From: an uncultured Gammaproteobacteria bacterium
Lineage (GTDB): Bacteria; Patescibacteriota; Patescibacteriia; Buchananbacterales; UBA6539
Reading direction: 5' to 3'
DNA: 64,000 nt
Assembly: GCA_964535715.1 (NCBI GenBank)
Contig: CAZHUO010000001.1
Location: 31,696 to 95,695 of the forward strand
Below, piece by piece: positions 10,232 to 54,595 of the stretch (the first letter of the stretch is position 1; every line of letters starts with the position of its first letter). The notes under the pieces were generated by a model that worked only from the letters and a program-made list of their open reading frames with translations, searched no databases and had not been told where the DNA came from. The translations under genes and the position numbers were made by a program.

Positions 10232-10324
10232 GCTATTTTTAAAAGTTTATAAAAGCAAGTAAAAGTAAATTAGAAGTAAATTAAGAATTAAGTAACGGGC
10301 AAGCGCCTCAACAGCCAGATTAGG

Positions 10325-10409
10325 CAACGGGGTTCTTGACCCGTTGACTAACGGGTTTAACCCCGTTGATGCAAAGAGAAATTTGCCAAGTTGAGACTAA
10401 AGTCTCAAC
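10325..10409 (+). terminator. Three consecutive GC-rich stem-loops downstream of the giant gene
   Basis: caacgg..ccgttg, aacggg..cccgtt, and gttgagac-taaa-gtctcaac (perfect 8-bp stem). No clear T-tract follows. Confidence 0.4.
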
Positions 10410-10445
10410 GCCCGAATTGAAAATGATTTTAAAAAAATTAAAATA

Positions 10446-36444: not shown

Positions 36445-38733
36445 TTGGAAATTAAAATTATGAAAAAGTATTCTAAATCAACCAATTTATTTACTTTTTT
36501 GCCGATTTTAGCGGTGGCAGTTTTTGCCACTTTTTTTGTTGGCGGTATTTGCGTTTTTGCCCAAACCTGGGTTGGTCCGACAGCTGATCCGCCGGGAAAT
36601 AACGTTTCCGGCTTAATTCAAAATAGAAATCCGATTGATAATAATCCCCAAGCGGCCTCAATTGATATTTCCGGCCAGTTAAGGGTTGGAAATAAAGCGG
36701 AAGTTGATAATTTAGTAATGACAAATTCCGGCTGGATTACGGTTGTCGGCGGTTCGATTTGCCTTGGTTCGACTAATCCGGAGGATTGCATAAGTGTCTG
36801 GCCGGGTAGCGGAAATGAGAGCATATGGGTTTTGAAAGATAATAATGACATTTATTATAATGCTGGCAATGTAGGTATTGGCACTAGTAATCCTAGTGCG
36901 GATATTAGGTTGATAGTTGGAGATGGCACTCCCATCGGCAATATTATCGGTATTAGCGGTGCCAGCAGCGAATATATAGGCACCCGCCTGGATGTTTTGG
37001 GTGCGGAAAAATGGTTTTCCGGAATAAATAATCAGGAAGATTATGTAATTAGAAAAGACAGCTCTTCTAATCCTTTTTTAATTGATTATGATACCAGCAA
37101 TGTCGGGATTGGTACAGGTGTGCCTGATAATAAATTAACAGTGAACGGCGACATTAATATTATTAACGGCAATAAATACAGAATTAACAATGAAATTATG
37201 GTTCAAGCTGATACTTCTAAGAAAAACTATTTTTTTGCCAATGCCGGAAATTTAACAATGACAGGTGATTTTAATAGTGTCTTGGGTAGAAATTCTTTGA
37301 AAAATAATGTTGAAGGTTCAGGAAATGTTGCTTTTGGCGAGCAAGCCCTAACTAATACAATTTCCGGTAATTATAATACGGCATTGGGATTTAAATCACT
37401 CTTTAATCATTTGTCCAGTTTTACCAATACGGCCATAGGAAGTTTGTCGGGAGGGAATCTAATTAATGGCAATGGAAACACTTTTTTAGGAACTTATTCA
37501 GGCGGCAATATAGAAGAAGGCAATTATAATACTTTTGTCGGTTATGGTTCCGGCGGCTACCTTTCAAATATACTGAAAGTTGGTTCAAATAATATTTTAA
37601 TTGGCTATAATGCCGGCGCAATAGAAAATATATCTAATTTTTTAAATATTGGAAATACGATATATGGCGATTTATCTGCCAAAAGTGTTGGCATTGGAGT
37701 AGTCAGCCCTTCGCAGAAGCTTGATGTTGGCGGCAGCTTGAAAGTTGCCGAAGATGTTTATTTAGAAAATGATAAAGCTGTGAGAGTTGACGGTTCAGGC
37801 TTAACAAATCTATATATTGGAAATTGGGGAGTGGGAGCATCAGGCGTTAATTTAAATATAAATAACGGCGGCATATTAGCAGCCGGCAGTAACAGCTGGG
37901 ACGGCGGAACTTTAGGAGCGGGTAAAAGAATGATGTGGATACCGGCAAAATCAGCTTTTAGAGCCGGTATGGTCGAAGGTGATGAGTGGAATTCTGTAAA
38001 TATTGGAAATTATAGTTTTGCCGTCGGTTTTAATACAAAAGCATCGGGTGGAAGTTCAGTAGCAATGGGTTCCAAAACAACCGCTTCAGGTCAATCTTCA
38101 TTAGCTTTAGGTACTGATACTATGGCTTCAGGACATTGGTCAATGGCAACTGGTTGGGGAACTCAGGCATTGGGAATCATGTCAACGGCGATGGGTGAAG
38201 GATCAATTGCCTTGGGAGATTTTTCGACGGCAATTGGATTGCATTCAAGAGCGGGAAGATATTCAGTGGCAATAGGAAAAGATACAATAGCTTCAGGCCA
38301 AGGTTCGGTTGCATTTGGTAATACCTCAGAAGCATCAGGCAATTATTCAGTAGCAATTGGTTCTTTAACTACCGCTTCAGGTCAATCTTCATTTGCTTTA
38401 GGTTCGAGTATAGTAGCATCGGGTGGAAGTTCAGTAGCAATGGGGCAAAGAATTAGCGTTTCCGGAAATAATAGTTTTGGAATAGGGCTTGATTATTATT
38501 CAAGGGAATTAACTCAGCCAAATACCATGGCAGTAATGGGCGGAAAAGTCGGAATTGGGATACTTAATCCTGTTGAAGTATTGGAAGTTAACGGAAACAT
38601 TAAGGCAAGCGGGGGCTATTTAGCTGGTAGCCAGCAAGGTTTAACCAAGAATATTACAGTCAAAGGTTCTGACGGGAATAATTGCAGCATTAATGTGGTT
38701 GGCGGAATAATTGTATCCACCACCTGTCCTTAA
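36445..38733 (+). CDS. Secreted repeat protein with YadA-head/Hep_Hag-like or tail-fibre-like Ser/Gly/Ala 14-residue repeats
   Basis: Signal/[27 protein letters not shown]. More than 12 tandem degenerate repeats of the form xxSxAxGxxTxASGxxS (e.g. [34 protein letters not shown]...). Confidence 0.7.
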
Positions 38734-38792: not shown

Positions 38793-40610
38793 ATGGCTAA
38801 AAAACTATTAACAATATTTATTGGCGACGTAAGGCGAGGGAAACAAAAAATATTAAATTTTTTGTTTTCGAGCCGAGGAGCCATCAAAGGGTCAATACCC
38901 GAAAGCGCTCCGTCGCCAAAGCTGCACTTTTTCCAGCTTTGGAGCGTCGGCGACTTGCTGCGGAAGAAGTGGGCGGAGCGCGTCGTCGCCAAAGCGGCTT
39001 TGACGCGTCGGCGACTTGCTCCGCGGTTAATACCCTTTATTCTATCGATAGTTTTAATTGTAAGTTCTTTGATTTTATTAAAAACTAACGCCCAGGAATT
39101 GCCGGCCGCCATGCTTTGCGGAGACGGAATTGTCCAGTCGCCAAACAGCGAAGGTTTTTATGAAAAATGCGATGAAGTCGGAGAAACCAAAAGCTGCACC
39201 AGCCAGTGCGGCCAAAAACTGCTTGGCTGGGCCTGGTCGGACAATATCGGCTGGATTTCTTTAAGTAATGAAAATTGTGATTTTTTGGCTGAAGGGACTT
39301 GCCAAAATCAGAATTATAATTATTATGTCCAGGCTAAAGCCGCTGAAATGGCCGATGGCGAGGTTAAAGGGGAAATTATAGGCTGGGGCTGGTCGGACAA
39401 TATCGGCTGGGTTTGCTTTGGCCAAACTTGCCAAGGTTATTCCGACCTTACTCCGCCTGATGGCTGGCAGACTTATGCAAAGCAGGCAGGCACTAATGAT
39501 CCGTTGGTTTTCGGCTGGGCTTGGAATGAATCAATCGGCTTAATTTCTTTAAATTGCGGCCTTAATTCAATTCCATGCGAGACTTCTGACTATCAGTTAA
39601 AACTTATTAAAAGTGATTTTGGATCTGTCCAACGCCTTACATTGTTAGGCTGGGCCTGGTCTGATATTTCCGGCTGGACTTCTTTTACTCCTGAAATCAG
39701 CGATACTCTGCCTTGGCTTCAGACAAAATATGGCGATATTTATGCCAGAAAGGGAATTTTGGGAAATGAGCCGCCTGATTATGGCTATAATGCCACTTAT
39801 CAGATAATTTCCGGAGACATTATCACTAATTTCCGCTCGGCAAGAGGTGAAGACTGGATTAAACAGGGATTTCAGGAAATCGGTTTTCCCAGGCCTAGCA
39901 CCCGCTATTCCAACGTTTTAGGGAAGATAAATATTTCGGATTTACTCTGTGATCTTTCAGTCCAAAATACCTGCATAAACAAGTTTGGAAAAATTGTTGA
40001 AAAGATTATTGATGAAAACAATTCAGGCAATATTGATCTTTCGGGCAAAATATATTACCGGGACGGTAATTTAGTCATCGACAATCCTATAAATTTTATG
40101 AATGCAGTCGGTTTTGATGACGGAAGCGGGACGATTATCGTTAATGGTGATTTGGTTATAAATAGTGACGTCAAATATGATAACTCCACTAGTCCGATAA
40201 TATTTAAAAATTTAGCTTCCGCCGCCTTTATTGTCCTGGGAGATTTGAAAATCAGCCCAAATGTCTCGAATTTGGCCGGAAATTTCATTATTATCGGCAA
40301 CGGAAATGATTGCAATCCAAATCAGGAAAGTGAAGTGACCGGCTGCGGCCAAATATATACTTGCTGCGTTTTAAGCGGCGAAAGCTGCGCTTTTGACGAA
40401 AGAGTCTGCCAACAGAATCCTTTAATAGTTTCCGGCTTGATGATGGCTAAAAAGTTTTATTTAAAACGTATATTCATCACCGACTCGCAAGATGTTCAGG
40501 GTTCGGAAATCATTATTTACGATGGGAGGCTTTTGGCCAATACGCCTCCGGGGTTGGGCGACTTTGCCAAATCAATGCCGATTTGGCATTTGGATTTTTT
40601 GTCTCAATAA
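38793..40610 (+). CDS. Secreted protein with five GWAWSDNIGW(I/V) repeats. The signal-peptide region is interrupted in frame by MITE-like copy c.
   Basis: After conceptual excision of 38823-39041 the N-terminus reads MAKKLLTIFILSIVLIVSSLILLKTNAQE, a canonical signal peptide. Repeats LLGWAWSDNIGWISL, IIGWGWSDNIGWVCF, VFGWAWNESIGLISL, LLGWAWSDISGWTSF. Confidence 0.65.
   Translation: MAKKLLTIFIGDVRRGKQKILNFLFSSRGAIKGSIPESAPSPKLHFFQLWSVGDLLRKKWAERVVAKAALTRRRLAPRLIPFILSIVLIVSSLILLKTNAQELPAAMLCGDGIVQSPNSEGFYEKCDEVGETKSCTSQCGQKLLGWAWSDNIGWISLSNENCDFLAEGTCQNQNYNYYVQAKAAEMADGEVKGEIIGWGWSDNIGWVCFGQTCQGYSDLTPPDGWQTYAKQAGTNDPLVFGWAWNESIGLISLNCGLNSIPCETSDYQLKLIKSDFGSVQRLTLLGWAWSDISGWTSFTPEISDTLPWLQTKYGDIYARKGILGNEPPDYGYNATYQIISGDIITNFRSARGEDWIKQGFQEIGFPRPSTRYSNVLGKINISDLLCDLSVQNTCINKFGKIVEKIIDENNSGNIDLSGKIYYRDGNLVIDNPINFMNAVGFDDGSGTIIVNGDLVINSDVKYDNSTSPIIFKNLASAAFIVLGDLKISPNVSNLAGNFIIIGNGNDCNPNQESEVTGCGQIYTCCVLSGESCAFDERVCQQNPLIVSGLMMAKKFYLKRIFITDSQDVQGSEIIIYDGRLLANTPPGLGDFAKSMPIWHLDFLSQ
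38823..39035 (+). mobile_element. MITE-like structured repeat, copy c (213 bp), flanked by TTTATT at 38817-38822 and 39036-39041
   Basis: Same family as 24205-24380, with an internal duplication (gcggagcgcgtcgtcgccaaagcggctttgacgcgtcggcgacttgctccgcgg). Insert plus duplicated flank is 219 bp (73 codons), so the host ORF stays in frame. Confidence 0.75.
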
Positions 40611-40625
40611 TGTTAAAATTAAGTT

Positions 40626-41801
40626 ATGCCACTATTTTCAAAATCTAAAAATTATATTGGAATCGATTTTGATTCCAATAGTGTAAAGATAGTTGAATTG
40701 AAAAACGAAGGCGGCCGGCCAAGGCTTGCCACTTATGGCTATATTGACAAAGAAATTAATGGTTTATTAAGCAGTGAAAACAAGGGAGATGCAAACGAAA
40801 TTGGAAAATTAATCAAGCAAGTCGGTAAAAAAGCTAAAGTGACGACAAATCAAGCGGTTGCCGCTCTTCCTTCTTTTTCGGTTTTTAGCTCGATTTTAAG
40901 CCTGCCGGAAATGTCAAAGAAAGATTTAGCTTCAGCAATCAAGTGGGAAGCAAAAAAAGTAATTCCTCTTCCGGCCGAAGAAATGATTTTGGATTGGAAG
41001 GTTCTTGATAGTGATGAAAAAAACAAGGCCGGCGAAAAACCGAAAGAAAAAAAAGAAAGCAATGACGCAAAAAAAGATGAAAGCGTCCAAGAAGATGAAA
41101 ACAGCGAAGATGATGAAAAAGACGATGGATTTTTAAAGATTAGCCAAAAAACTAAAAATAAAAGCACTAAAGTTTTGCTGACAGCGGCGCCAAAAGACCT
41201 GGTTAAGCGTTATATGGAAATTTTTAAAGCCTCAGGTTTCGCCTTATTAAGCCTTGATACTGAACCTTTGGCTTTAATCCGCTCTTTGGCTTCAAATGAC
41301 AAATCGCCTTTAATGATTGTTGATATCGGATCGGTTGTCACAAATATTTCGATTTCGGTCAATGCTGTTCCGATTTTAAGCAGAAGCCTGGATGTCGGCG
41401 GAATGACAATAACAAAATCAATTGCAAACAGCCTAAACGTAAGTTTATCTAGAGCCGAACAGTTTAAATATGATATCGGAATGAACCCGATGCGCGCCGG
41501 CCAGGGAAGTGTTCCAAAAACGATTGAAAACGCCTTGGTGCCGATAATTGATGAGTTAAAATACAGTATAAATTTATATCGAAATCAAGGTAAGAATAAT
41601 ATTGAAAAAATAATTCTAACCGGCGGATCTTCCTTGCTGCTTAATTTGCCAGAGTACTTGTCTAATGTTTTAGGCATTAGATCGTTTTTAGGCGATCCCT
41701 GGGCAAGAGTGATATATCCGGAAGAATTAAGGCCGGTTTTAGATGAAATTGGCTGTCGTTTTTCCATAGCTGTCGGCTTAGCGATGAGAAATATTGAATA
41801 A
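40626..41801 (+). CDS. pilM: Type IV pilus assembly protein PilM (actin-like ATPase fold) with an acidic low-complexity insert
   Basis: YIGIDFDSNSVKIVEL N-terminal motif and overall PilM layout. Insert KNKAGEKPKEKKESNDAKKDESVQEDENSEDDEKDD. Confidence 0.85.
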   Translation: MPLFSKSKNYIGIDFDSNSVKIVELKNEGGRPRLATYGYIDKEINGLLSSENKGDANEIGKLIKQVGKKAKVTTNQAVAALPSFSVFSSILSLPEMSKKDLASAIKWEAKKVIPLPAEEMILDWKVLDSDEKNKAGEKPKEKKESNDAKKDESVQEDENSEDDEKDDGFLKISQKTKNKSTKVLLTAAPKDLVKRYMEIFKASGFALLSLDTEPLALIRSLASNDKSPLMIVDIGSVVTNISISVNAVPILSRSLDVGGMTITKSIANSLNVSLSRAEQFKYDIGMNPMRAGQGSVPKTIENALVPIIDELKYSINLYRNQGKNNIEKIILTGGSSLLLNLPEYLSNVLGIRSFLGDPWARVIYPEELRPVLDEIGCRFSIAVGLAMRNIE

Positions 41802-41816
41802 TTAATATTAAAAATT

Positions 41817-42911
41817 GTGGCAGACATTAATTTATTGCCAGATGACTTGAATGATTCTACAAAGGACGGAAAATTTTTTGTTGGCAGAAAAAATTTAAAC
41901 AATAAAGGATCCGAACCAAGTAATCTTGGCAAAGAGCCTTTTTCGTCTGAATCGAAAAATTCAGTTTTTGGCCGTTTTTTTTCCGGGAGTCCTACGGAAA
42001 AGCCGGCACTTAAATTATCTGAGATGTCAAAGATAAAGAATAATTCAACAGATAACGATTTAATTGAAAATAGCCAAAAAAAGCCGCAAAATTCCGATTT
42101 AAGCGGTTATGAGCTTGAAGAAATAAAAAATAAAAGAAGAGAATTGAAAAATGAAAAAATCGCCATAAGAAATAGCCAGTCGGAAAGAGAAAATTTGTCA
42201 AAAATTTTTAAGCCGAAAGAAGCGGTTGACTTGCAAGTAAAACAAGCCGAGCAGGCCGAATTTAATAAGGCAGGTAAAGATGATACGGCAAAAAAGACAA
42301 AAAAAGAGGCAAAAAAAGACAAGCAAGATTTTTTGGATGTTAATTTGATGCCGCAGGAAGAGACTTTCATGCAGCCAGAGCTTGAGGTGTCAAAGAAACT
42401 TTATTTAAGCGCCATGATAATTTTTTCTTCCATTTTTATTGTAGCTGTTTTATATCTTGGCATTACCCTATATCAGCTCAGCATCGCAAAAAATATATCA
42501 GAAATCGAAAAAGAAATAAATGATTTGGGTCAAAAAATTTCAAGCGTTGAAGGTAATAAAAATGAAGCACTTGCGGTTCAAAGTCATTTTGAGGCGGCAG
42601 ATAAACTCATAAAAAAGCATATATATTGGACTAAATTTTTTGGTTTTTTGGAAAAATACACAAATAATGACGTATATTACACAAGTTTTTCAATGGCCGG
42701 CCAGGATAAGCTGGTGATATCAGCGGTTGGAAAAGACTATCAATCTGTCGCCAAGCAGTTGGTTTCTTTCCAAAAAGCCGGTGATTTTATAAAAAATGTG
42801 AGAATTGATGCCGCTTCTGCCGACATTGTTGATGAAGCGGGAAATTATCAGGTCAACTTTAACATAAACTTGGAATTTCAGCCCGCTGTTTTTTTCGAGG
42901 CAGATAAATAA
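41817..42911 (+). CDS. PilN-like bitopic pilus assembly protein with a long disordered N-terminal region
   Basis: Single TM LYLSAMIIFSSIFIVAVLYLGITLYQL followed by a coiled-coil plus periplasmic domain. Positioned between pilM and pilB. Confidence 0.6.
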   Translation: MADINLLPDDLNDSTKDGKFFVGRKNLNNKGSEPSNLGKEPFSSESKNSVFGRFFSGSPTEKPALKLSEMSKIKNNSTDNDLIENSQKKPQNSDLSGYELEEIKNKRRELKNEKIAIRNSQSERENLSKIFKPKEAVDLQVKQAEQAEFNKAGKDDTAKKTKKEAKKDKQDFLDVNLMPQEETFMQPELEVSKKLYLSAMIIFSSIFIVAVLYLGITLYQLSIAKNISEIEKEINDLGQKISSVEGNKNEALAVQSHFEAADKLIKKHIYWTKFFGFLEKYTNNDVYYTSFSMAGQDKLVISAVGKDYQSVAKQLVSFQKAGDFIKNVRIDAASADIVDEAGNYQVNFNINLEFQPAVFFEADK

Positions 42912-42912
42912 A

Positions 42913-42989
42913 GGGTATTTCACCCTTTGTCGGCTCCTCGTCTCGGAAGCAAAAAATTGTAATTTTTGTTTCACTCGACTTACGTCGCC
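42913..42989 (-). mobile_element. MITE-like repeat, short copy d (77 bp), flanked by aataaa on both sides (42907-42912, 42990-42995)
   Basis: The reverse complement ggcgacgtaagtcgagtgaaacaaaaattacaattttttgcttccgagacgaggagccgacaaagggtgaaataccc matches the 5' module of copies b and c. The insert overlaps the stop codon region of the PilN-like gene. Confidence 0.55.
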
Positions 42990-42998
42990 AATAAAAAT

Positions 42999-43619
42999 AT
43001 GGAAAAAAGAAGTAATCAAAAAATAAGAAACGATAAAAACCTTCAGCTAAAGATTTTTTTTCTTAAATATTACAAATTAATTATTTTGTTTTTTGTTGCT
43101 ACTATTATCGGCCTGAGCTATTATTTTATTTTAAACCCTAAATACCAGCAAGCAAGCATCGGCGGAAAGTATAATGTCAGCTCTTTACAGCAAGAGTTAG
43201 ACAGAAGAAGCGCCTACTTGGCTGATTTAAAATCTTTGGACAATAATTATAAGCTTATTAATCAGAAAGACATCGAAAAAATAAAAATGATTTTGCCTGA
43301 AGAAAAAGACATAGCCGGTATTTTTGTCCAGCTGGAATCATTAGCCAAGGAAAATAATCTTTTTTTGGACGGAGTGAGCATTAACGAAGCGGAAACTGAA
43401 AATATTGATTCCGCCGAAAAAAACAATGACGGAATAAAGAAACTCAGCATAAAGCTGAATCTTACAAGCACTACCGAAGACGGAGACTATAATGAAATCA
43501 AGAATTTTTTATCTTCGCTGGAATACAACTTAAGGCTTTTTGATGTCAATGCGGTTTATTTTTCTCCGGGATCACCAACCTATTCAATCAATCTTTTTAC
43601 CTATTATTATAAAAAATAA
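42999..43619 (+). CDS. PilO-like bitopic pilus assembly protein
   Basis: ATG at 42999 (MEKRSNQK...). The tool start at 42966 lies inside the MITE copy. TM LIILFFVATIIGLSYYFIL followed by a coiled coil. Confidence 0.55.
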   Translation: MEKRSNQKIRNDKNLQLKIFFLKYYKLIILFFVATIIGLSYYFILNPKYQQASIGGKYNVSSLQQELDRRSAYLADLKSLDNNYKLINQKDIEKIKMILPEEKDIAGIFVQLESLAKENNLFLDGVSINEAETENIDSAEKNNDGIKKLSIKLNLTSTTEDGDYNEIKNFLSSLEYNLRLFDVNAVYFSPGSPTYSINLFTYYYKK

Positions 43620-43946: not shown

Positions 43947-45671
43947 ATGAATAGCCAGAAAAATCAATTACTCGGCGCATTAGTGTCAGAAAATATTTTG
44001 GATATTAATGCCGCTTCTGAAATTGAAAAAAAAGCCCTGGCTGAAAACAAAAGCATTGAAGATATTATTATCAGTAAAAATATAGTTGATGAAGAAAAAC
44101 TTACTGAAATAAGGGCAAAAATTTTGGATGTTCCCGCGGTTAACTTAAGCGGAAAGCAGATTCAAAAAAAAATTTTAAACTTGATTCCAAAAGAAGTTGC
44201 GGAAAATTATCAAATGGTTCCATTTGAAAAAATTGGAAATGAAGTTCATGTTGCCTTAATTAATCCCCAAAATTTTAAAGCGATTGAAGCGATTGAATTT
44301 TTAGCCCAAAAAGCCAATTTAAAAATTAAATATTTCATTACCTCGCCTTCAAGCTTTAATTCGGCATTCAAGCAATTCGGAGTTTTAGGTGAAGAAGTCC
44401 AAAAAGCTTTAGCCGGCATAGAGGAAGATTCAGACGAAGTTTTTGACATTGATAGGATGAAAGAAATGGAGCAGGTAATTAAGAATGCTCCGGTTTCAAA
44501 AATGGTTTTGGTGATTATTAGGCATGCAATCGACGGCCGGGCTTCCGATATTCATATCGAGCCGACAATTAAAGATACAAGAGTCCGTTATCGGATTGAT
44601 GGAATTTTAAGGACTTCCTTGGTTTTGCCAAAATATATCCATTCGGCAATCATAGGACGGATAAAAGTTTTGGCAAATTTAAAAATAGATGAAACCAGAA
44701 AACCCCAAGACGGCAGAATCAGGCTAAGTATAGAAGACCATGATGTTGATTTTCGCGTATCGACTTTGCCGTTATTTGAGGGTGAAAAAATCGTTTTGAG
44801 AATTTTAGATACGGCAACGGAAGTTCCTACCTTGGAAGACTTGGGATTTAATCCCATCCACATAAATATTATTAAAGAAGTTGTTAAAAAACCTCACGGA
44901 CTTTTGCTTTTGACCGGTCCGACCGGTTCGGGGAAAACCACTACTCTTTATACGATTTTAACAATGCTAAATCAGGAAGGGACAAATATCGTAACCCTTG
45001 AAGATCCGATCGAATATTATGTCCCGGGAGTAAATCAATCGAATATTAATCCTGATGTCGGTTATACCTTTGCTTCAGGCTTAAGATCAATATTGCGCCA
45101 GGATCCCAATGTCATAATGGTTGGCGAAATCAGGGATAAGGAAACTACCGAGCTGGTAATCCATGCAAGTTTGACCGGCCATTTGATGCTTTCGACCCTT
45201 CATACCAATAATGCTGTCGGTTCAATACCCCGGCTAATCGACCTTGGAGCTGAGCCCTTTTTGCTTTCATCTGTCCTTAATTTAGTTATTGCCCAGAGGC
45301 TTGCCAGAAGAATTTGCCCTGATTGCAAAAAAGAAATTCCAATCCCTCAGGTGATGCTTAAAAAAGTTAAAGAGCAGCTGGCAAGTACGCCTGCGGAATA
45401 TTTACAGGGGCTTAATTTTGATAAATTGGTTTTTTATAAAGGCCAAGGCTGTTCTCACTGCGGAAATTTGGGTTATAAGGGCAGAATTGCCGTGTCGGAA
45501 GCAATTATAATTAATAATGAAATAAGAGAAATAATCAGCAGGGGCGGCGATGTTAACATGGTTAAAGTTTTGAAGGATCAAAATTTTATCACTTTAACCC
45601 AGGATTGCCTGATTAAAGCATTAAAAGGGCTGACTACCATAGATGAAGTAATCAGGGTGTCGCAAATATAA
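43947..45671 (+). CDS. pilB: Type IV pilus extension ATPase PilB (GspE family)
   Basis: N-terminal GSPII_E_N-type domain. Walker A LLLTGPTGSGKTTTLYTIL, Asp box TLEDPIEYY, Walker B IMVGEIRDKET, His box SLTGHLMLSTLHTN, tetracysteine CPDC...CSHC. Confidence 0.9.
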   Translation: MNSQKNQLLGALVSENILDINAASEIEKKALAENKSIEDIIISKNIVDEEKLTEIRAKILDVPAVNLSGKQIQKKILNLIPKEVAENYQMVPFEKIGNEVHVALINPQNFKAIEAIEFLAQKANLKIKYFITSPSSFNSAFKQFGVLGEEVQKALAGIEEDSDEVFDIDRMKEMEQVIKNAPVSKMVLVIIRHAIDGRASDIHIEPTIKDTRVRYRIDGILRTSLVLPKYIHSAIIGRIKVLANLKIDETRKPQDGRIRLSIEDHDVDFRVSTLPLFEGEKIVLRILDTATEVPTLEDLGFNPIHINIIKEVVKKPHGLLLLTGPTGSGKTTTLYTILTMLNQEGTNIVTLEDPIEYYVPGVNQSNINPDVGYTFASGLRSILRQDPNVIMVGEIRDKETTELVIHASLTGHLMLSTLHTNNAVGSIPRLIDLGAEPFLLSSVLNLVIAQRLARRICPDCKKEIPIPQVMLKKVKEQLASTPAEYLQGLNFDKLVFYKGQGCSHCGNLGYKGRIAVSEAIIINNEIREIISRGGDVNMVKVLKDQNFITLTQDCLIKALKGLTTIDEVIRVSQI

Positions 45672-45706: not shown

Positions 45707-46081
45707 ATGGCCAGCAAGAAAAAAATTTTATTAGTTGAGGACGATGAATTTTTAGCCGAACTTTATGCAACCAAACTGGGTTTGGAAAAATTTGAAGTAT
45801 ATTTGGCATCAGACGGCGAAAAAGGATTAAGGATAACAAAAGAAAAAAAACCCGATTTGATTTTGCTGGATATAATACTGCCTAAAATGGATGGTTTTGA
45901 AATTTTAAAAATTTTGAAAGCCGATCCTGAATTAAAGAATATCCCCGTTATTCTTTTGACGAACTTAAGCCAGAAAGATGAAGTCAAAAAAGGCCTTGAG
46001 CTGGGTGCTAACGATTATTTGATTAAGGCTCATTTTATGCCTTCGGAAGTTGTAAAAAAAATAAAAAACATTATTGGATAA
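45707..46081 (+). CDS. Stand-alone CheY-like response-regulator receiver domain (PilH/PilG-like)
   Basis: Acidic pocket DD, phospho-acceptor LLDIILPKMDG, conserved T and K (LTNLS...LIKA). 124 aa with no output domain. Confidence 0.85.
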   Translation: MASKKKILLVEDDEFLAELYATKLGLEKFEVYLASDGEKGLRITKEKKPDLILLDIILPKMDGFEILKILKADPELKNIPVILLTNLSQKDEVKKGLELGANDYLIKAHFMPSEVVKKIKNIIG

Positions 46082-46091
46082 ATAAAAAATT

Positions 46092-47162
46092 ATGGCTTCA
46101 ATAGACTCCATTATCAATAGAATTTTGATTGCCGCCGCAAAGCAAAAAGCTTCAAATATTCATTTGACTGTTGGCGCTTTGCCGGCTTTAAGAATTGATG
46201 AAAAACTTATTGAGCTTTCCGATGAAGTGGCAATAACAGATGATTTTTTAAGGCAGCTTGCCGACAGCTGGCTTGATATTTCTCAAAAGCAGGAATTGGT
46301 AAAAAATAAAGAGATAATCTTCGTCAAAGAGATTGACAATAAATTCAGATTTAAAATAAATTTTTTTTTCCAAAAAGGTTTTTTGTCGGCTTCACTGAAG
46401 GTAATTTATGACAAGATTCCATCATTGGCAAGTTTAGGACTGCCAAAGTCGGCTTACGGCTTTTCGGAAAAGAATTCCGGCCTAATTATAATTTGCGGCC
46501 CTTACGATTCCGGCCGGAGCACGACTGTTAATTCAATAATCGAAGAAATCAATAAAAAAAGAAGTGAAAATATAATTGTTATTGAAAAGCCGGTAGAATA
46601 TCTTTTTACGAACCAGAAAAGCATTATTGAACAAAGGGAAGTTGGCCGAGATACTATTTCTTTTACTGAGGCGGTTAAATCTGCCCAGCAGTCAGATGTT
46701 GATATAATTTCGGTTGGCGCTAATTCTGAATCCGAATCAATACCGCTTGTCGTTGAATTTGCCAATTCCGGCCGGCTGGCTTTTATGATCATGGATACGA
46801 TTTCCGCAATTCAAACCATTGAAGAAATTATCTCTTCTTTTCCGGTAAATGAAAGGGAAAGGGCGAATATTTTGCTTGCTGATTGTATTCTCTCGATAAT
46901 TTCTCAGCGTTTGGTTCCTCGCCGTGGCGGCGGCTTGGCTTTGGCAACGGAGATTTTAATTGCCACCGAATCAGTCCGTTCTCTTATTAGGGAGGGGAAA
47001 ATCAAGCAGCTGATGACTATTTTACAAAGTTCCAGGGAAGAAGGAATGCTTACATTAGACCAGTCATTAGCTGAATTAGTTTTATCAAACGAGGTTTCAA
47101 TTGAAAAAGCGATGGAATATGTAGGTGATAAAGAAATTTTTCGAGGAATGGCTAAGGGTTAA
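46092..47162 (+). CDS. PilT-like retraction-ATPase homologue with degenerate catalytic motifs (predicted pseudo-ATPase)
   Basis: Colinear with PilT, but Walker A is GPYDSGRST (canonical GPTGSGKST; K to R), Asp box is IEKPVE (EDPIE), Walker B is VGANSE (VGEMRD) and His box is ANSGRLAFMIMDT (AETGHLVFGTLHT). Confidence 0.8.
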   Translation: MASIDSIINRILIAAAKQKASNIHLTVGALPALRIDEKLIELSDEVAITDDFLRQLADSWLDISQKQELVKNKEIIFVKEIDNKFRFKINFFFQKGFLSASLKVIYDKIPSLASLGLPKSAYGFSEKNSGLIIICGPYDSGRSTTVNSIIEEINKKRSENIIVIEKPVEYLFTNQKSIIEQREVGRDTISFTEAVKSAQQSDVDIISVGANSESESIPLVVEFANSGRLAFMIMDTISAIQTIEEIISSFPVNERERANILLADCILSIISQRLVPRRGGGLALATEILIATESVRSLIREGKIKQLMTILQSSREEGMLTLDQSLAELVLSNEVSIEKAMEYVGDKEIFRGMAKG

Positions 47163-47175
47163 TATTTGATAATTT

Positions 47176-48381
47176 ATGCCTTATTACCGATACAAAGCAA
47201 AAGATAAAACCGGCACCACTTTGTCCGGCTTGATTCAGTCGATTTCAAGCGATTTGGCGGTCGACATGCTTTCGGAACAAGGTTTGGTGATCCTTTCTTT
47301 AAAGGAAGAGGATATTAAAAGCTGGGACAGGTCTTTAAAATTTTTCAACCGGATTAAAATTAAGGATCTTGTTGTTTTTTCCCGCCAGCTTTCAGTAATA
47401 ATTTCAGCCACCATACCTTTAGTCCAGGGTTTAAGGATAATAGTCAATCAAACCGAAAATCCCGCTTTTCAAGCAATAATTTCTGAAGTTGCCGATGATG
47501 TTGAAGGCGGAGCCAAGCTTTCCGTATCTTTAGGCCGCCATCCCCATGCTTTTTCTGATTTTTTTGTAAATATCATTAAGTCGGGCGAGACTTCCGGAAA
47601 ACTTGATGAAGTTTTGAATTATTTGGCTGATCAGCAGGAAAAGGATTATGATTTATCGTCCAAAATCAAGGGGGCAATGATTTATCCGATATTTATTCTT
47701 GCCGGTTTAGTGACCGTTGGGGCTTTAATGATGATTTTTGTCATTCCCCAGCTCACCTCGATTTTAGCTGAAACCGGCGTACAGCTGCCATTGTCAACCA
47801 GAATTTTAATAAGCGTAAGCAATTTTCTTGCCGCTTATTGGTGGGCGGTTTTGATAGCATTAATTTTTGGCATATCTTCTGTCAGAGTTTTGATTTCGAC
47901 TCCGAAAGGCAGATATTATTGGGATACTTTCAAGCTTAGGTTGCCGATTTTTGGAAAACTTTTTCAAAAAATAATATTAGTTCGCTTAACCAGAAGCCTT
48001 TGCACCCTTATTACCGGCGGAGTTTCTTTGACAAAAAGCTTGGATATTGTATCTAATGTTGTTGGAAACGAAACTTATAAAATAATCTTGAGGGAAACCA
48101 GGCTTGAAGTTGAAGACGGAAATTCAATAGCCACGATTTTTTTGAAAAGAAAAGAAGTGCCGGTAATGGTTTCGCAAATGCTTAAACTGGGAGAAAAAAC
48201 CGGTCGGATTGACGAAATTTTGGATAAACTGGCTAATTTTTACAGTCGGGAAGTAAATAATATGGTGGCGAATCTTACTACTATAATAGAGCCGTTGATT
48301 ATGGTTTTAATGGGTGCTGCTGTCGGTATTTTGGTTGCCGCGATAATTTTGCCAATGTATAATTTAGCGGCGGTTTTATAA
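47176..48381 (+). CDS. pilC: Type IV pilus inner-membrane platform protein PilC (GspF family)
   Basis: Two GspF repeats, three TM segments, 401 aa. Confidence 0.9.
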   Translation: MPYYRYKAKDKTGTTLSGLIQSISSDLAVDMLSEQGLVILSLKEEDIKSWDRSLKFFNRIKIKDLVVFSRQLSVIISATIPLVQGLRIIVNQTENPAFQAIISEVADDVEGGAKLSVSLGRHPHAFSDFFVNIIKSGETSGKLDEVLNYLADQQEKDYDLSSKIKGAMIYPIFILAGLVTVGALMMIFVIPQLTSILAETGVQLPLSTRILISVSNFLAAYWWAVLIALIFGISSVRVLISTPKGRYYWDTFKLRLPIFGKLFQKIILVRLTRSLCTLITGGVSLTKSLDIVSNVVGNETYKIILRETRLEVEDGNSIATIFLKRKEVPVMVSQMLKLGEKTGRIDEILDKLANFYSREVNNMVANLTTIIEPLIMVLMGAAVGILVAAIILPMYNLAAVL

Positions 48382-48426: not shown

Positions 48427-48456
48427 TTGCAATTGCCATTTTTTATTTTTTATATT
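48427..48456 (+). promoter_or_regulatory. Candidate sigma70-type promoter for the major pilin gene
   Basis: TTGCAA, 18 nt, TATATT. Strong RBS aaagggggtg 8 nt before the ATG. Confidence 0.4.
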
Positions 48457-48526
48457 ATAATATAATTAATATAAATAAAAATTATCTTCGTATTAATTTG
48501 ATGCGAAAAAGAAAGGGGGTGAAAAA

Positions 48527-48958
48527 ATGCAAAATAAAAAAGGTTTTACTCTTATCGAATTGCTGGTAGTTATCGCCATTATCGGATTATTGTCGACTTT
48601 GGCGGTTGTCGCTTTAAATTCTGCCAGATCAAAAGCCCGCGATGCTAAAAGAATTGCCGATATCAAACAAATCCAAACCAGCCTGGAGCTTTATTTTAAT
48701 GATCAATCCGGTTATCCTGCCGCTACCGCTACTTTGGGCCTTTCAGGAGCTGCTTGTTTAGGAACTGCCGGCTTTGGAATTGCCGGTTGCGCTGATCCGT
48801 ATATGGGATTGGTTCCTTCTAATCCGACTCCGCAAGGAGCGGCCTATGTCTATACTTCTGCCGGTGCTGATACTTATACAATTTCATTTAATTTAGAAGG
48901 TACAACCGGCGGTCTTGCTTCAGGAGCTCATACTGCCAACCAAGACGGAATGCAGTAA
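48527..48958 (+). CDS. pilA: Type IV pilin (class III signal peptide), likely major pilin
   Basis: MQNKKGFTLIELLVVIAIIGLLSTLAVVAL: a G/F cleavage site, E+5, and a hydrophobic alpha1 helix. Confidence 0.85.
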   Translation: MQNKKGFTLIELLVVIAIIGLLSTLAVVALNSARSKARDAKRIADIKQIQTSLELYFNDQSGYPAATATLGLSGAACLGTAGFGIAGCADPYMGLVPSNPTPQGAAYVYTSAGADTYTISFNLEGTTGGLASGAHTANQDGMQ

Positions 48959-49059: not shown

Positions 49060-51318
49060 ATGAATTTAAAAATTAAAAAAATATTTCCGCCGATTTTTCT
49101 GCTTATTTTGATTGTAATATTTTTATCGCCTTATTTATTCAGCCAAAATATTCCTTATGTCGGTGATTTTACCGGCAGTGATTTAACCGAACTTAATTTG
49201 CCGTTTCGTTATCTTTCATCATTGGCCTTAAAAAACGGTGAGATTCCTCATTTGACAGGGCTTTTGGCCAATGGCTTGCCGATTTTAGCCGAAGGCCAGG
49301 CAGGCGTTTTTTATCCGCTAAATTTTTTGTATATTTTTTTGCCGTTTTTTCTGGCAGTTAATTTGGCCCTGCTTTTGAATTTTTTTCTGGCCGGATTTTT
49401 CAGCTATATTTATTTCCGCATTTTGAAAATAAGCCAGATGGGTTCGCTTTTGGCCGCCGTCTCATTTTGTTTCAGCGGCTTTTTTATTTTCCGGCTCAAA
49501 CATTTGAATATGATTAATTCGGCAATTTGGCTACCGCTTGAGCTTTATCTTGTGGAGAGATATTTTTCCGAAAAAAAATCAAAGGCGATAAATTTGATTC
49601 TTTTAGCTTTGGTTTTTGCGCTTCAGTTTTTTGCCGGCCATCCCCAGATTTTTTATATATCTTTTTTGTCGGTATTTTTATATTTTTGCCTTAAGATTAT
49701 TTTTGCCAGCAAGGAAAAATTTTTCAGCAAATTAAAAGAAATTATTTTATTCTGGGTATTTGTGACAATTATTTTTTGTTCTGTTTCGGCAATCCAGCTG
49801 GTGCCCACATTTTTTTATGCCAAAGATTCTAGCCGTGGATTTGTGATGGATTATCTGCATACAAAGGAATTTCCTTATTTGGTCTCAAGCCTTCAATATT
49901 TTGTTTCCCCTTATTTTTTAGGAAATCCCTCAATAAACACTTATCCATCGGACAGGATAAAGGAATTCGGAGTTTTTTGGGAAAATAATTTTTATTTTGG
50001 CCTGCTGCCTCTTTTATTGGCTATTTATGCTTTATTATTCTTGTTTTTTAAAAAATTACAGGTAAGGATCTTATTTTTCCTGATTTTTTTGTCGCTACTT
50101 TTAAGCTTCGGGGCTTCTAATCCTCTTTTTCTTATTTTTTGGGAGCTTATTCCCGGATTTAAAATTTTCAGATTTCCGCAGAGGTTTATGATATTAGGCC
50201 TTGTCTGCCTGGCAGCATTAGCGGGTTTTGGTTTTGATTTTTTTTGGGACAAAATAAAAAAAAGCGCGGAAAAATTTAATTTTCTAAAAAATTCTAAATT
50301 ACTGTTTAATTCACTTCTGCCGCTTGTAATAATAATTATTATTGCCGCCGACTTGTTTTTAGTTGCCTATTCCTATCTTGGAGTTTTGGATTATAAGAAA
50401 TATTTCATTGACGAACCCAAAAGCGTAGAATTTTTAAAACAGGATAAGGATCATTATAAAATTTACAGTCTTGGCTGGCCTGAAGCTTGGAATCATATAA
50501 ATAATATTTCCGGAGGCTGGCAGAATAATTTTTCACTTTTTATTTCCGGCCGAGAGCTTTTACCGCCAAATTTAAATGTTTTTTGGGGAATTTCTTCAAT
50601 TCAAGATCGGGCATCTTTGGAAGGCGGAATGATTTCCAATGAATTATTCAATTTATCTTATTTATTGGATCAAAGTTTTAAAAAAAACGGGGAAGTAATT
50701 TTTGTTTCAGAGCAAACGCTTAAAATTTTGGGAATGCAAAATGTTAAATATCTGCTATCTTTTAGAGTTGTTAATTCGAATAATTTGATTTTAGTAAAAG
50801 AGATAAAAAATGATTTTTTGCCTTCTTTAAAAATTTACAAAAATAATTATTTTTTGCCTTTTGCTTTCGATGTTTTTAAAACAAGACGGGTCGAAGAAAA
50901 AAAGGAAATAGTCAAAGAATTATTTGATTTGAATTTTAATCCAAGTAATGAAATTATTTTGGATGAAGATTCACTTAATTATGAAAAAGATGGCCAAAAA
51001 GCTATTTTGGATTTTTATGAAAGAAGCAATAGCCGCTATGCCATTAATGTAGATTTCAGCCATGATGGCTACCTCTTTTTAAGCCAGTCTTTTGATAAAT
51101 TTTGGCAGGCTGAAATCGATGGGATCAAGTCTAATTTATTAAGAGCAAATTATGCCTTTATCGCCTTAAAAATATCTGCCGGTAGACACAATATTGTTTT
51201 TACTTACAAGCCTTTATATTACACGATAGGCAAATGGATAACTATTGTTTCTCTGATTTTTTTGGTTTTATTTCTATTTTATCATTATTTATTTAAGGAA
51301 AAAATAAATGAAAAATAA
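49060..51318 (+). CDS. Large polytopic membrane protein (~13 TM plus C-terminal soluble domain), GT-C-like glycosyltransferase architecture (YfhO-like)
   Basis: 752 aa. The first ~450 aa are almost entirely hydrophobic helices. A ~300-aa C-terminal domain follows. Confidence 0.6.
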   Translation: MNLKIKKIFPPIFLLILIVIFLSPYLFSQNIPYVGDFTGSDLTELNLPFRYLSSLALKNGEIPHLTGLLANGLPILAEGQAGVFYPLNFLYIFLPFFLAVNLALLLNFFLAGFFSYIYFRILKISQMGSLLAAVSFCFSGFFIFRLKHLNMINSAIWLPLELYLVERYFSEKKSKAINLILLALVFALQFFAGHPQIFYISFLSVFLYFCLKIIFASKEKFFSKLKEIILFWVFVTIIFCSVSAIQLVPTFFYAKDSSRGFVMDYLHTKEFPYLVSSLQYFVSPYFLGNPSINTYPSDRIKEFGVFWENNFYFGLLPLLLAIYALLFLFFKKLQVRILFFLIFLSLLLSFGASNPLFLIFWELIPGFKIFRFPQRFMILGLVCLAALAGFGFDFFWDKIKKSAEKFNFLKNSKLLFNSLLPLVIIIIIAADLFLVAYSYLGVLDYKKYFIDEPKSVEFLKQDKDHYKIYSLGWPEAWNHINNISGGWQNNFSLFISGRELLPPNLNVFWGISSIQDRASLEGGMISNELFNLSYLLDQSFKKNGEVIFVSEQTLKILGMQNVKYLLSFRVVNSNNLILVKEIKNDFLPSLKIYKNNYFLPFAFDVFKTRRVEEKKEIVKELFDLNFNPSNEIILDEDSLNYEKDGQKAILDFYERSNSRYAINVDFSHDGYLFLSQSFDKFWQAEIDGIKSNLLRANYAFIALKISAGRHNIVFTYKPLYYTIGKWITIVSLIFLVLFLFYHYLFKEKINEK

Positions 51319-53116
51319 ATTAATAAGAAATAATTTTTTATATTTTTGCTTGGCTTTTTTTGTTCCAATGTCAATATATCTTTTAACCTTGGCCCCAACA
51401 GTTACTGTTGAAGACAGCGGTGAATTAATCACCGCCGCCTATACTCTTGGCATTCCTCATCCTTCTGGCTATCCGTTATATGCAATTTTAGGAAAAATTT
51501 TTACCTATATTCCTTTTGGCACGATTGCTTGGCGGGTCAATCTGATGTCTGCATTTTTTGGTGCACTGTCCGTAGCGTTGCTTTATTTAGTTATTGAAAG
51601 GTTAACCAAAAATAAGCTGATTTCATTTTTTTCATCTTTGATTTTTGCTTTTTCTCCGATTTTTTGGTCGCAATGCGTTATTGCCGAAGTATATACAATA
51701 AATACTTTTTTCACTGCTCTGCTGATTTTTATTCTTTTATGCTGGGCGGAAAAACAAGATAAAAAATATCTTCTTTGGTTTTCATTCTTATTCGGATTAA
51801 GCCTGACTAACCATACGGCAATGATTCTTTTTGCGCCGGTATTTGCCATATTTATAGTTTCTCATAGAATGGAAATCATTAAGGAATGGAGATTAATTGT
51901 TTATATGCTTGCATTATTTTTAGCCGGACTTTTGCTTTATTTTTATATTCCTCTTCGAGCTTGGCAAAGAGCGGATTTCAACTGGGGACCGATTACAAAT
52001 TGGATTGACGTATTGGCTCATATCAGCCGTCAGCAATATAATGATTTTTCACCCCTTAAAAGCATGTATAGCAAGCTTGGGATAATGATTTATTTTTTTG
52101 TTGAAATAGCCAATCAGTTTTACATTCCTTCCTTGATTTTAGCGTTAATTGGCGCTGCGGCTCTTTGGCTTAAAGATAAAAAAACCGCCTGGCTTACGAC
52201 CGGAATTTTTTTAGGCAGCAGCATCGTTATAATCTATTTAAGGAAATTCGGCTTTGTTTTGGGAATAGAATACACCTATAGAGTATATTACCTGCCGGCA
52301 TTTCTAATTGTGGTTGTCTGGCTTGGGATAATTATTAATTATCTTTATGTGTTTTTGCCGGAAATTTTAAAAAACAAAGCGCTTGTAAATTTAACCAAAG
52401 GCCTTTTTTGGCTGGTTTTAATTTCATTGCCCCTAAGCTTTCTTGTTGGCAATTATAAAAAAGCGGATATGAGCTCTTTTTGGCTGGTTTATGATTATTC
52501 TAAAAATCTATTAGACAGTATGGAACCAAACAGCGTTTACTATTTTTCCAATGACGGCAGCCTGTCGGGCGATACCGAAATATTCAGCCTCGTCTATTTA
52601 AAAATGGTTGAAAATTATCGTAGCGACATTGACATCGTCTCCGAACATAGGTTTTTTTATAAAGATATAAATTTAACTCTGCCAAAAAGCTTTTTTAAGC
52701 TTGATTTTGACGAAAAAAGAAAAAATTTTTTTAATCTTTTGGCCGAAATAAAAGATAGGCCTTTATATACGACTTTTGCGATTACTGAAAAAGAAAGCGA
52801 TTTGGGCTTATTCAGCCTTTCAAACGGGTATGTTCATCGAATTTACAGAAGCTTAGAAGAAGCCAAAAAGGCTGAGCTGAAAGTAATTTTACCGCCGATA
52901 AGAAATATTTCGGAGATTGACGGCCAAAGCGATTATTCGCTTACCGGGATCGCTTCGCGCTACAATTATAATTTAGCATATTTATATTTAGCGCTTGGCC
53001 AAAAAGAAGAATCGCAAAGGCGTTTGATAAATGCTTTTAATTTTGATATTGCTCCGTTTAATCATGAATACCGCCGATTTATTGATTATCGGTCTGAATG
53101 GCTTGGCGATAATTAA
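51308..53116 (+). CDS. DUF2723/TMEM260-like GT-C membrane glycosyltransferase-like protein
   Basis: N-terminal signature LTLAPTVTVEDSGELITAAYTLGIPHPSGYPLYAILGKIF characteristic of DUF2723. Multiple TM segments and a C-terminal soluble domain. Confidence 0.7.
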   Translation: MKNKLIRNNFLYFCLAFFVPMSIYLLTLAPTVTVEDSGELITAAYTLGIPHPSGYPLYAILGKIFTYIPFGTIAWRVNLMSAFFGALSVALLYLVIERLTKNKLISFFSSLIFAFSPIFWSQCVIAEVYTINTFFTALLIFILLCWAEKQDKKYLLWFSFLFGLSLTNHTAMILFAPVFAIFIVSHRMEIIKEWRLIVYMLALFLAGLLLYFYIPLRAWQRADFNWGPITNWIDVLAHISRQQYNDFSPLKSMYSKLGIMIYFFVEIANQFYIPSLILALIGAAALWLKDKKTAWLTTGIFLGSSIVIIYLRKFGFVLGIEYTYRVYYLPAFLIVVVWLGIIINYLYVFLPEILKNKALVNLTKGLFWLVLISLPLSFLVGNYKKADMSSFWLVYDYSKNLLDSMEPNSVYYFSNDGSLSGDTEIFSLVYLKMVENYRSDIDIVSEHRFFYKDINLTLPKSFFKLDFDEKRKNFFNLLAEIKDRPLYTTFAITEKESDLGLFSLSNGYVHRIYRSLEEAKKAELKVILPPIRNISEIDGQSDYSLTGIASRYNYNLAYLYLALGQKEESQRRLINAFNFDIAPFNHEYRRFIDYRSEWLGDN

Positions 53117-53848: not shown

Positions 53849-54595
53849 ATGGAAGGCTTATTCATTTTCATATTTGGTTTGATGATCGGCAGTTTTTTAA
53901 ATGTCGTAATTTTTCGTCTGGAAAAAAACAAGTCTTTTATTTTCGGGCGTTCGGCTTGTCGAAGCTGCGGCGGTAAAATTCTTTGGTACGATAATATTCC
54001 TGTTTTAAGCTTTATTTTTTTGCGGGGAAAATGCCGCAATTGCAAAAAATCGATTTCTTGGCAATATCCTTTGGTTGAGCTTGCGTGCGGGATTATCTTT
54101 TTTTGGCTTTATTCTTATTTTGGGATAAGTTTCAAATTTTTCAGCTTTTTGGTTTTCAGCTGCTTTCTTTTGGTTATATTTGTTTATGACCTCAAGCACT
54201 ATTTGATTTTGGATAAAGTCAGCATTTTGGCGATGGCTGCCGCTTTGGCATTAAATTTATTTTCCGACATTGGTTTTTTGAATTTAATTTTTGCCGCAAT
54301 TGCCGGCGGCGGTTTTTTTGCTTTTCAGTTTTTTGTTTCAAAGGGAAAATGGGTAGGTGACGGCGATATAAGGCTTGGCATTTTAATGGGCTTGATGCTT
54401 GGACTAAAGATGCTTTTAGTCGCTTTATTTTTAGCTTATATAATAGGATCTTTTGTTGGCATTTTTTTGATAATGTTTAAGCGGAAAAAAATGTCTTCCC
54501 AGGTTCCTTTTGGGCCATTTTTAGCATTAGCCACTTTTATTGTCTTAATTTACGGAGAAGAAATTTTAAACTGGTATATTAATTTATTGCATTAA
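53849..54595 (+). CDS. pilD: Prepilin peptidase PilD (A24 family)
   Basis: N-terminal tetracysteine CRSCGGKILWYDNIPVLSFIFLRGKCRNC and a multi-TM DUF/A24 core. Confidence 0.9.
   Translation: MEGLFIFIFGLMIGSFLNVVIFRLEKNKSFIFGRSACRSCGGKILWYDNIPVLSFIFLRGKCRNCKKSISWQYPLVELACGIIFFWLYSYFGISFKFFSFLVFSCFLLVIFVYDLKHYLILDKVSILAMAAALALNLFSDIGFLNLIFAAIAGGGFFAFQFFVSKGKWVGDGDIRLGILMGLMLGLKMLLVALFLAYIIGSFVGIFLIMFKRKKMSSQVPFGPFLALATFIVLIYGEEILNWYINLLH

Follow-up and report, generated by a model that had tools for sequence, protein, structure and literature searches.

What becomes of a type IV pilus when the gene in the place of its retraction ATPase no longer encodes the residues that hydrolyse ATP? The question is raised by a 64,000-nucleotide stretch of DNA (the window) from contig CAZHUO010000001.1 of assembly GCA_964535715.1 (positions 31,696 to 95,695, forward strand), deposited under the name of an uncultured Gammaproteobacteria bacterium and placed by GTDB in the Patescibacteriota (Patescibacteriia; Buchananbacterales; UBA6539), an ultra-small bacterium whose type IV pilus operon carries a PilT-like gene with substitutions in the catalytic motifs. 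PilT is regarded as the motor that drives retraction in all type IVa pili, and the residues of its catalytic site have been called invariant throughout the ATPase superfamily. The best explanation of the evidence assembled here is that, within a large monophyletic group of Patescibacteria, the PilT-like gene has replaced canonical PilT in the pilus operon, and loss of ATPase activity is predicted from the sequence. Taken as a package, it seems to us somewhat probable that the protein is a conserved, nucleotide-binding, non-motor descendant of PilT whose ring would alternate with PilB at the PilC/PilM platform, the specific role being the part that we hold with less confidence.

The catalytic site of the PilT-like protein

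The gene and its altered motifs lie as follows.

46092..47162, + strand: PilT-like gene with disabled catalytic motifs, 356 amino acids, ATG to stop
46353..46355, + strand: codon 88, arginine finger 1 replaced by Lys (FRFKIN; aligns with the arginine of FRVST in PilB)
46398..46400, + strand: codon 103, arginine finger 2 replaced by Lys (SLKVI; aligns with the arginine of VLRIL in PilB, 15 residues past finger 1)
46497..46523, + strand: Walker A/P-loop, residues 136-144, GPYDSGRST (canonical GPTGxGKST); Lys142 replaced by Arg, glycines and Ser/Thr kept
46581..46601, + strand: Asp box, residues 164-170, IEKPVEY (canonical IEDPIEY); Asp166 replaced by Lys, Glu165 and Glu169 kept
46701..46730, + strand: atypical Walker B, residues 204-213, DIISVGANSE (canonical DVIxVGEMRD); catalytic Glu210 replaced by Ala, M211 and R212 lost
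46767..46799, + strand: His box, residues 226-236, SGRLAFMIMDT (canonical TGHLxxxTLHT); H228 replaced by Arg, H235 by Asp
46974..47000, + strand: C-terminal VRSLIREGK helix, counterpart of the PilT AIRNLIRE motif by alignment with PilT

Residue calls were made by aligning the protein with PilT of A. aeolicus, with canonical PilT from Patescibacteria and with the PilB of the window. The last of these also set the register of the arginine fingers, its two arginines sitting 15 residues apart; its numbering is one off that of G. metallireducens PilB (R271, R286, E357, H413 and H420; PMC5424180), a mapping drawn from the alignment. At least seven catalytic-site positions that are invariant in canonical PilT are altered together in the window protein. 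The initial annotation had already read the change from Lys to Arg in Walker A, from EDPIE to EKPVE in the Asp box and from the catalytic Glu to Ala in the Walker B stretch VGANSE, along with the replacement of both His-box histidines, and the alignment confirms every one of these (R142, K166, A210, R228 and D235). To them it adds the changes at the two arginine fingers (K88 and K103) and at R245, invariant in canonical PilT and here a Glu, none of which that annotation contained. The universally conserved residues of PilT-like ATPases have been listed together with their roles, the Asp-box Glu coordinating Mg and the second His-box His touching the gamma-phosphate (PMC5424180), and catalytic residues are essential to PilT activity (PMC5065972).

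In its overall build, the protein is colinear with PilT from end to end, just as the initial annotation had it. The closest solved structure is that of A. aeolicus PilT (2gsz/2ewv, E=6e-74, residues 11-353 of the query against 7-350 of the chain), and both the N-terminal PilT-N signature SNIHLTVGALPALRIDEKL (residues 21-39) and the C-terminal VRSLIREGK (residues 295-303) are present. The next structure matches are T. thermophilus PilT2, G. metallireducens PilT4 and P. aeruginosa PilT; structures of PilU, DotB and PilB score far lower than those of PilT. T2SSE is the sole Pfam assignment and passes its threshold (59.3 bits vs a cut-off of 24.9), whereas against TIGR01420 the protein reaches 310.7 bits and falls below the curated cut-off of 319.1, a canonical Patescibacteria PilT (P0120) reaching 447.1. 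An AlphaFold2 model built with the family alignment has a predicted local distance difference test score (pLDDT) of 92.7 and a predicted template modelling score (pTM) of 0.88, and Foldseek matches it to the full-length subunit of the G. metallireducens PilT4 hexamer (6okv) with a template modelling (TM) score of 0.90, ranking this match above PilU, DotB and PilB. As modelled, the complete two-domain PilT fold is intact and the change is limited to the chemistry of the nucleotide site. The protein shares with canonical PilT (2gsz/2ewv, the PilT4 structures 6ojx/6okv, and P0120) its length, the two-domain fold, the HLTVG..P..R and QREVG motifs, the LIRE helix and the slot between pilB and pilC; unlike canonical PilT, it is without the Walker A Lys, the catalytic Glu, the arginine fingers, the Asp-box Asp and the His-box His.

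Relatives, descent and selection

Is this an oddity of one genome? A search of 5.8 billion proteins argues otherwise: among the 120 relatives listed, 118 are non-canonical at the same motifs, down to 41% identity, and the first canonical PilT among them appears at 42-44% identity to the window protein. The usual motifs of these relatives are GP[YF]GSG[RK]T, IEKPIEY and SGRLxxxxM[DN]T, with no GEMRD, and the named members among those listed belong to Candidatus Buchananbacteria, Falkowbacteria, Kuenenbacteria and the 'Patescibacteria group'. More than 170 intact, full-length relatives (350-365 amino acids) with altered motifs were found down to ~35% identity, and all those that are informatively named are Patescibacteria (Buchanan-, Kerfeld-, Komeili- and Kuenenbacteria, and others). 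Chance is ruled out, since more than 100 independent homologues carry these very substitutions. The clade is also large and diverse, as 56 of the nearest 86 single-domain representatives of 50%-identity clusters are without at least three of the seven catalytic-site residues. In public records most clade members go by 'PilT/PilU family type 4a pilus ATPase' or 'twitching motility protein PilT', and a few are recorded as generic or TadA-type pilus ATPase or as hypothetical protein. Full-text searching of the literature for a PilT in Patescibacteria that is degenerate, a pseudo-ATPase or a paralogue found nothing on the clade, and a lineage-wide, selected pseudo-ATPase PilT is a variant for which we found no description in the literature; the Walker boxes of Saccharibacteria PilT have been described as well conserved. 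As a separate observation, several loci (L006, L013, L014, L018, L020 and others) are typical Patescibacteria pilus loci on contigs titled 'uncultured Gammaproteobacteria bacterium', and these labels look wrong.

For the comparison site by site, the combined set comprised 144 canonical and 174 non-canonical proteins, the latter consisting of a close clade, whose 76 sequences share 50% identity or more with the window protein, and of ~98 more distant members. Seventeen positions are invariant throughout the canonical set (D22, R34, D76, R86, R88, R103, K142, E165, D166, E169, E210, R212, H228, H235, R245, Q257 and R300) and four more are nearly so (H160, M211, D213 and Q261, each in 142-143 of 144). 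At several of them the close clade has switched to another residue. K142, Lys in 144/144 canonical proteins, is Arg in 68 of the 76 (89%); R88, likewise Arg in 144/144, is Lys in 62 of the 76 (82%); and H228, His in 144/144, is Arg in 100%. Position 103, Arg in 144/144 canonical sequences, is more mixed (R46, K15, H6, S5), and further switches turn H160 into N, R245 into E (83%), Q257 into R (92%) and Q261 into L (96%). The catalytic Glu210, present in 144/144 canonical proteins, survives in 6 of the 76, and constraint is gone altogether from D22, D76, the stretch G209 to R212, T233 and R300. Retained in the clade are G136, G141, T144 and T145, E165 (nearly invariant), E169 (invariant), QRE(V)G, D187, D202 and E287. 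The alignment across relatives that the initial annotation had proposed as a check has thereby been made, and the changes in Walker A, Asp box and His box are kept in the 76 close and ~98 distant homologues alike. The freedom of the 209-212 segment suggests that the catalytic centre of the close clade may have been released from selection, whereas nucleotide binding may persist, as is suggested by the invariant glycine and Ser/Thr scaffold of the P-loop, the Mg-binding E169 and the interchange of K and R at Walker A and at the fingers.

The non-canonical sequences also belong together by descent. In a neighbour-joining (NJ) tree calculated without the motif and switch columns, 129 of 130 of them fall in one pure clade, and the split that defines this clade has a bootstrap of 200/200 (NJ, thinned set, motif columns excluded). 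Several independent losses are consequently unsupported, the non-canonical sequences forming one NJ clade even without the motif columns; the pattern speaks for a single origin, with the losses accruing step by step, although a simple NJ tree leaves room for long-branch attraction. Against a 76%-identical relative (L006), the rate of nonsynonymous substitution (dN) is 0.14 and that of synonymous substitution (dS) is ~2 and saturated, which gives a dN/dS of ~0.07, and three more assemblies, independent of this one, encode the identical protein. Judged by these figures, the PilT-like gene is under purifying selection. The constraint on it differs from that on its counterpart, however, since canonical PilT evolves more slowly than PilB, by an average of 10.5 identity points of conservation across canonical loci, and the PilT-like protein evolves faster, being about 7 identity points less conserved than PilB, with a spread of about 4-16 points in degenerate loci. 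The pseudo-ATPase that the initial annotation had predicted, to be taken as a selected pseudo-enzyme if its motifs were conserved among relatives, finds support in those conserved motifs, in the monophyly of the relatives and in the purifying selection: on present sequence evidence the protein has the marks of a pseudoenzyme, being a clear homologue within an enzyme family that has lost residues essential for catalysis and is conserved across species under purifying selection.

The PilT slot of the pilus operon

The PilT-like gene lies inside a tight, co-directional type IV pilus operon, flanked by gaps of 10 and 13 nucleotides, in the order PilM, the PilN and PilO positions, a small open reading frame (ORF), PilB, receiver, PilT-like, PilC, pilin and, farther on, PilD.

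40626..41801, + strand: PilM (Pfam PilM_2, 130.2 bits)
41817..42911, + strand: weak, sub-threshold PilN match (19.7 bits vs a cut-off of 22.8)
42966..43619, + strand: ORF in the PilO position; no Pfam match, placed by synteny alone (its counterpart in L004 has a weak PilO match)
43947..45671, + strand: PilB extension ATPase (Pfam T2SSE, 407 bits, and MshEN)
45707..46081, + strand: stand-alone CheY-like receiver with acceptor Asp55 (Pfam Response_reg, 1.6e-25), 10 nucleotides upstream of the PilT-like gene
47176..48381, + strand: PilC platform protein (Pfam T2SSF, two copies)
48527..48958, + strand: major type IV pilin (N_methyl motif, T2SSG-like)
53849..54595, + strand: prepilin peptidase PilD (Pfam A24_N_bact and Peptidase_A24)

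Reading the motif positions within the pilB gene bears out the earlier statement that the neighbouring PilB, in contrast to the PilT-like protein, retains all its motifs: GPTGSGKTT, LEDPIEY, VGEIRD and TGHLMLSTLHT are intact, as are both arginine fingers and the CPDC/CSHC zinc (tetracysteine) motif.

Is the PilT-like gene, then, an additional paralogue or PilT itself in another guise? The order pilB, receiver, PilT-like, pilC is repeated in dozens of related loci, and the canonical PilT of other Patescibacteria occupies the identical slot, PilM-N-O-PilB-(receiver)-PilT-PilC-pilin-PilD, in Parcubacteria/Paceibacteria, in Yanofsky-, Levy-, Yonath- and Kaiserbacteria, and in loci labelled Saccharibacteria. 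By position, the degenerate form thus corresponds to PilT. Of the earlier designation as a PilT paralogue, the homology to PilT stands, whereas the implied extra copy gives way to a gene that sits in the very pilB-receiver-pilT-pilC slot. That it is the sole PilT homologue in the window also holds, as tblastn of the 64 kb finds no other and returns only cross-matches to PilB. To survey other genomes, one per GTDB species was scanned with generic peptide patterns, which yielded 80 loci. Among these 80, tblastn of the flanks (up to 10 kb on each side where the contig allowed, not the whole genome) with PilT-like, PilB, receiver and PilC sequences found no second full-length PilT-like gene near degenerate loci, and no assembly has two loci. 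The canonical and degenerate sets have no taxon label in common except the generic 'Parcubacteria group' and 'Patescibacteria group'. This distribution is suggestive of a replacement of canonical PilT by the degenerate form. Patescibacterium danicum belongs to class ABY1, presumably the class in which Buchananbacteria are to be expected. For its closed genomes a published table gives a single K02669 pilT, by annotation only.

Two further kinds of PilT-like gene were noticed. One is a distinct type with the motifs G[SA]FGSGKTT, EKPIEY, SEL and SGRLVIxNxEA, which keeps the Walker A Lys and the Walker B Glu and has no His box; where its gene context was annotated, in L088-L090 (gene at 10001-11074; P0102), it is found away from pilus loci, with a PilM homologue of its own immediately downstream and dprA, mfd and topA in the vicinity, and its motif type occurs also in L025, L030, L032, L033, L035 and L036, whose retrieved flanks contain neither PilB nor PilC. 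The other kind comprises tandem PilT-PilT fusions of 700-1000 amino acids among the nearest cluster representatives (P0239, P0241-P0245, P0248, P0255, P0280 and P0282), mostly made of two canonical halves; P0255 joins a degenerate N-terminal half to a canonical one, and in P0280 both halves are altered.

The small receiver next door might appear to be a specific partner of the degenerate PilT. That idea was rejected, as the receiver gene precedes canonical and degenerate PilT alike in most Patescibacteria loci (L005-L075), canonical PilT being preceded by it in many of them; its presence upstream of both forms makes it a general feature of the operon and not a marker of degeneration. It is also the best-conserved protein of the locus, with 77-84% identity where PilB has 58-77%.

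Possible roles of the protein and the surrounding locus

How could a pilus work with such a protein in the place of PilT? The initial annotation had proposed that it may serve as a regulator, a brake or a scaffold, or that a functional PilT may be encoded elsewhere. The clade-wide loss of the residues for ATP hydrolysis means that pili of the clade probably work without a conventional retraction motor. On the reading favoured here, a non-motor descendant of PilT, a ring of the PilT-like protein and PilB, the sole intact motor, would take turns on the PilC/PilM platform, and docking of the PilT-like ring would end extension. It could then permit slow disassembly, either unpowered or driven by PilB, or else hold the pilus static, and the neighbouring CheY-like receiver might bias which of the two rings sits on the platform. 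A fuller and more specific version, in which Buchananbacteria and the allied lineage have PilB as their only working motor, a PilT ring that binds nucleotide and does not hydrolyse it, and no canonical retraction ATPase in the genome, such that disassembly is unpowered or PilB-driven, gated by the pseudo-ATPase and possibly controlled by the receiver, we put forward only tentatively and with considerable doubt.

Several observations weigh against a dead site. The distant members are less degraded than the close clade, with the catalytic Glu in 65 of 98 and the Walker A Lys in 26 of 98, and the clade as a whole may perhaps not be uniformly inactive. Moreover, the newly conserved R228, D/E235, E245 and R257 could mean that the site is rewired rather than dead, and loss of E210 goes along with an acidic residue at 235 (Fisher p=7e-11) and with E245 and R/K257 (p from 7e-11 to 1e-14, phylogeny uncorrected), the codons concerned being the following.

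46719-46721, + strand: co-varying codon 210
46794-46796, + strand: co-varying codon 235
46824-46826, + strand: co-varying codon 245
46860-46862, + strand: co-varying codon 257

Could the protein, then, be a working retraction ATPase in which Arg142 does duty for the Walker A Lys, Lys88 and Lys103 act as fingers, and D235 or E213 serves as general base? We consider this unlikely. The replacements are indeed conserved, charged and conservative in type (Lys and Arg trading places) and not random, the P-loop backbone and E169 are invariant, and the co-variation of 210 with 235, 245 and 257 within the clade speaks for such a site. The correlation between E210 and D235, however, is confounded by shared ancestry, and it has counter-examples, in that some types have both E210 and D/E235 and others have neither. 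The positions around the lost Glu, 209-212, are unconstrained in the close clade, and a rewired enzyme would have to accommodate the simultaneous alteration of seven canonically invariant catalytic-site positions. In P-loop nucleoside triphosphatases, moreover, a change of the Walker A Lys to Arg usually abolishes hydrolysis.

A second alternative, which strikes us as quite unlikely, makes the protein a non-catalytic adaptor that recruits an intact motor of the PilT/PilU type encoded elsewhere in the genome. It has a precedent in Vibrio cholerae, where an engineered ATPase-dead PilT (Walker A or Walker B mutants) and the natural PilT variant of strain MO10, forms that cannot bind or hydrolyse ATP and yet have a role at the machine, still support retraction driven by PilU and function only together with it (PMC6762196). 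These, however, carry single substitutions and have PilU adjacent, whereas the clade described here is altered at at least seven positions, is ancient and fixed, and has no PilU-like gene nearby in the 64-kb window or the surveyed flanks. The retained PilT fold and the many retained surface positions would suit an adaptor, and other PilT-like types do exist outside Patescibacteria pilus loci, such as the P0102 type with its Walker A Lys and Walker B Glu. Against these points stand the want of a second PilT-family gene in the window and in the retrieved flanks of the 80 loci (again not whole genomes), the single locus per assembly, the lack of overlap between canonical and degenerate loci in their informative taxon labels, and the size of the genomes, ~1 Mb or smaller.

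That the protein has a job unrelated to pilus dynamics, in DNA uptake or secretion, the gene merely staying in the operon, is very improbable. Type IV pili of Patescibacteria have been linked to competence (PMC11809585, PMC6744442), and the related PilT-like type mentioned above lies near dprA; the strict synteny inside pilB-receiver-T-pilC, with gaps of 10-13 nucleotides, nevertheless ties the gene to the pilus, and DNA uptake in such systems itself relies on pilus dynamics. A decaying pseudogene or an artefact of assembly or sequencing, which the joint disappearance of so many catalytic residues might bring to mind, is refuted, with next to no credence left for it, by the intact ORF, the identical protein on the further independent assemblies, the conserved motifs in more than 170 relatives, the low dN/dS and the confident fold, and the initial annotation was right to call sequencing error unlikely.

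Known systems offer partial parallels to the non-motor descendant of PilT that we favour, and the ATPase-dead PilT of V. cholerae (PMC6762196) is a precedent for a PilT that functions at the machine without hydrolysing ATP. The F1-ATPase alpha subunit keeps its P-loop, has lost the catalytic carboxylate and uses the nucleotide site for structure or regulation, to which the PilT-like protein can be likened; such subunits, however, are built into obligate hetero-rings with a catalytic paralogue, whereas no hetero-ring partner is known or indicated for the PilT-like protein. Within the PilT/PilU branch, PilU, Geobacter PilT1-4 and the Myxococcus PilT-like proteins also have accessory or unclear roles, but the four Geobacter paralogues retain all four catalytic motifs (PMC5065972), which the clade does not. 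The Tad pilus with its CpaF (PMC11300603) is a single-motor system, and if the PilT-like protein is inactive, here too one ATPase (PilB) would serve extension and disassembly, or disassembly would be unpowered. Tad systems, however, have no PilT-like second ring, whereas here a second, putatively non-catalytic ring protein has been retained under selection.

What is the significance of a clade that keeps the protein and drops its chemistry, if that is what it has done? It would amount to a natural experiment on what PilT does beyond ATP hydrolysis, be it occupancy of the platform, antagonism of PilB or an adaptor role, and it would bear as well on how a pilus disassembles without a dedicated motor. 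Non-catalytic roles of PilT and motor-independent retraction would become directly testable, and the outcome would surprise pilus specialists. Pili are central to the episymbiotic lifestyle and the competence of Patescibacteria, and metabolic reconstructions of these bacteria read such genes as a retraction ATPase and deduce twitching or powered DNA uptake (e.g. PMC11809585), a deduction that may be wrong here; the P. danicum paper draws the homologue as 'PilT (retraction ATPase)'.

The remainder of the locus offers some observations of its own. The major pilin is followed by two genes for membrane glycosyltransferase homologues, one YfhO-like (49060-51318) and one TMEM260/PMT_2-like (51308-53116), and then by the minor pilins and PilD; YfhO-like and TMEM260/PMT_2-like genes occur also in the related locus L005, and the presence of such homologues in the pilus locus suggests glycosylation of the pilin. 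The best sigma-70-like promoter match of the region (48433-48461; 11/12, TTGCCA, a 17-nucleotide spacer, TATAAT) is situated just upstream of the major pilin, which suggests that the pilin is transcribed separately from the motor genes. Directly upstream of pilM are a 762-amino-acid protein with YadA-head repeats (36445-38733) and a 605-amino-acid protein without a Pfam match (38793-40610), both of which may be adhesins or otherwise associated with the pilus. At the start of the window, an ORF of 3394 amino acids with a CBM_4_9 carbohydrate-binding domain (47-10231) is followed by one of 1140 amino acids with a TrbL/VirB6-like region (10446-13868).

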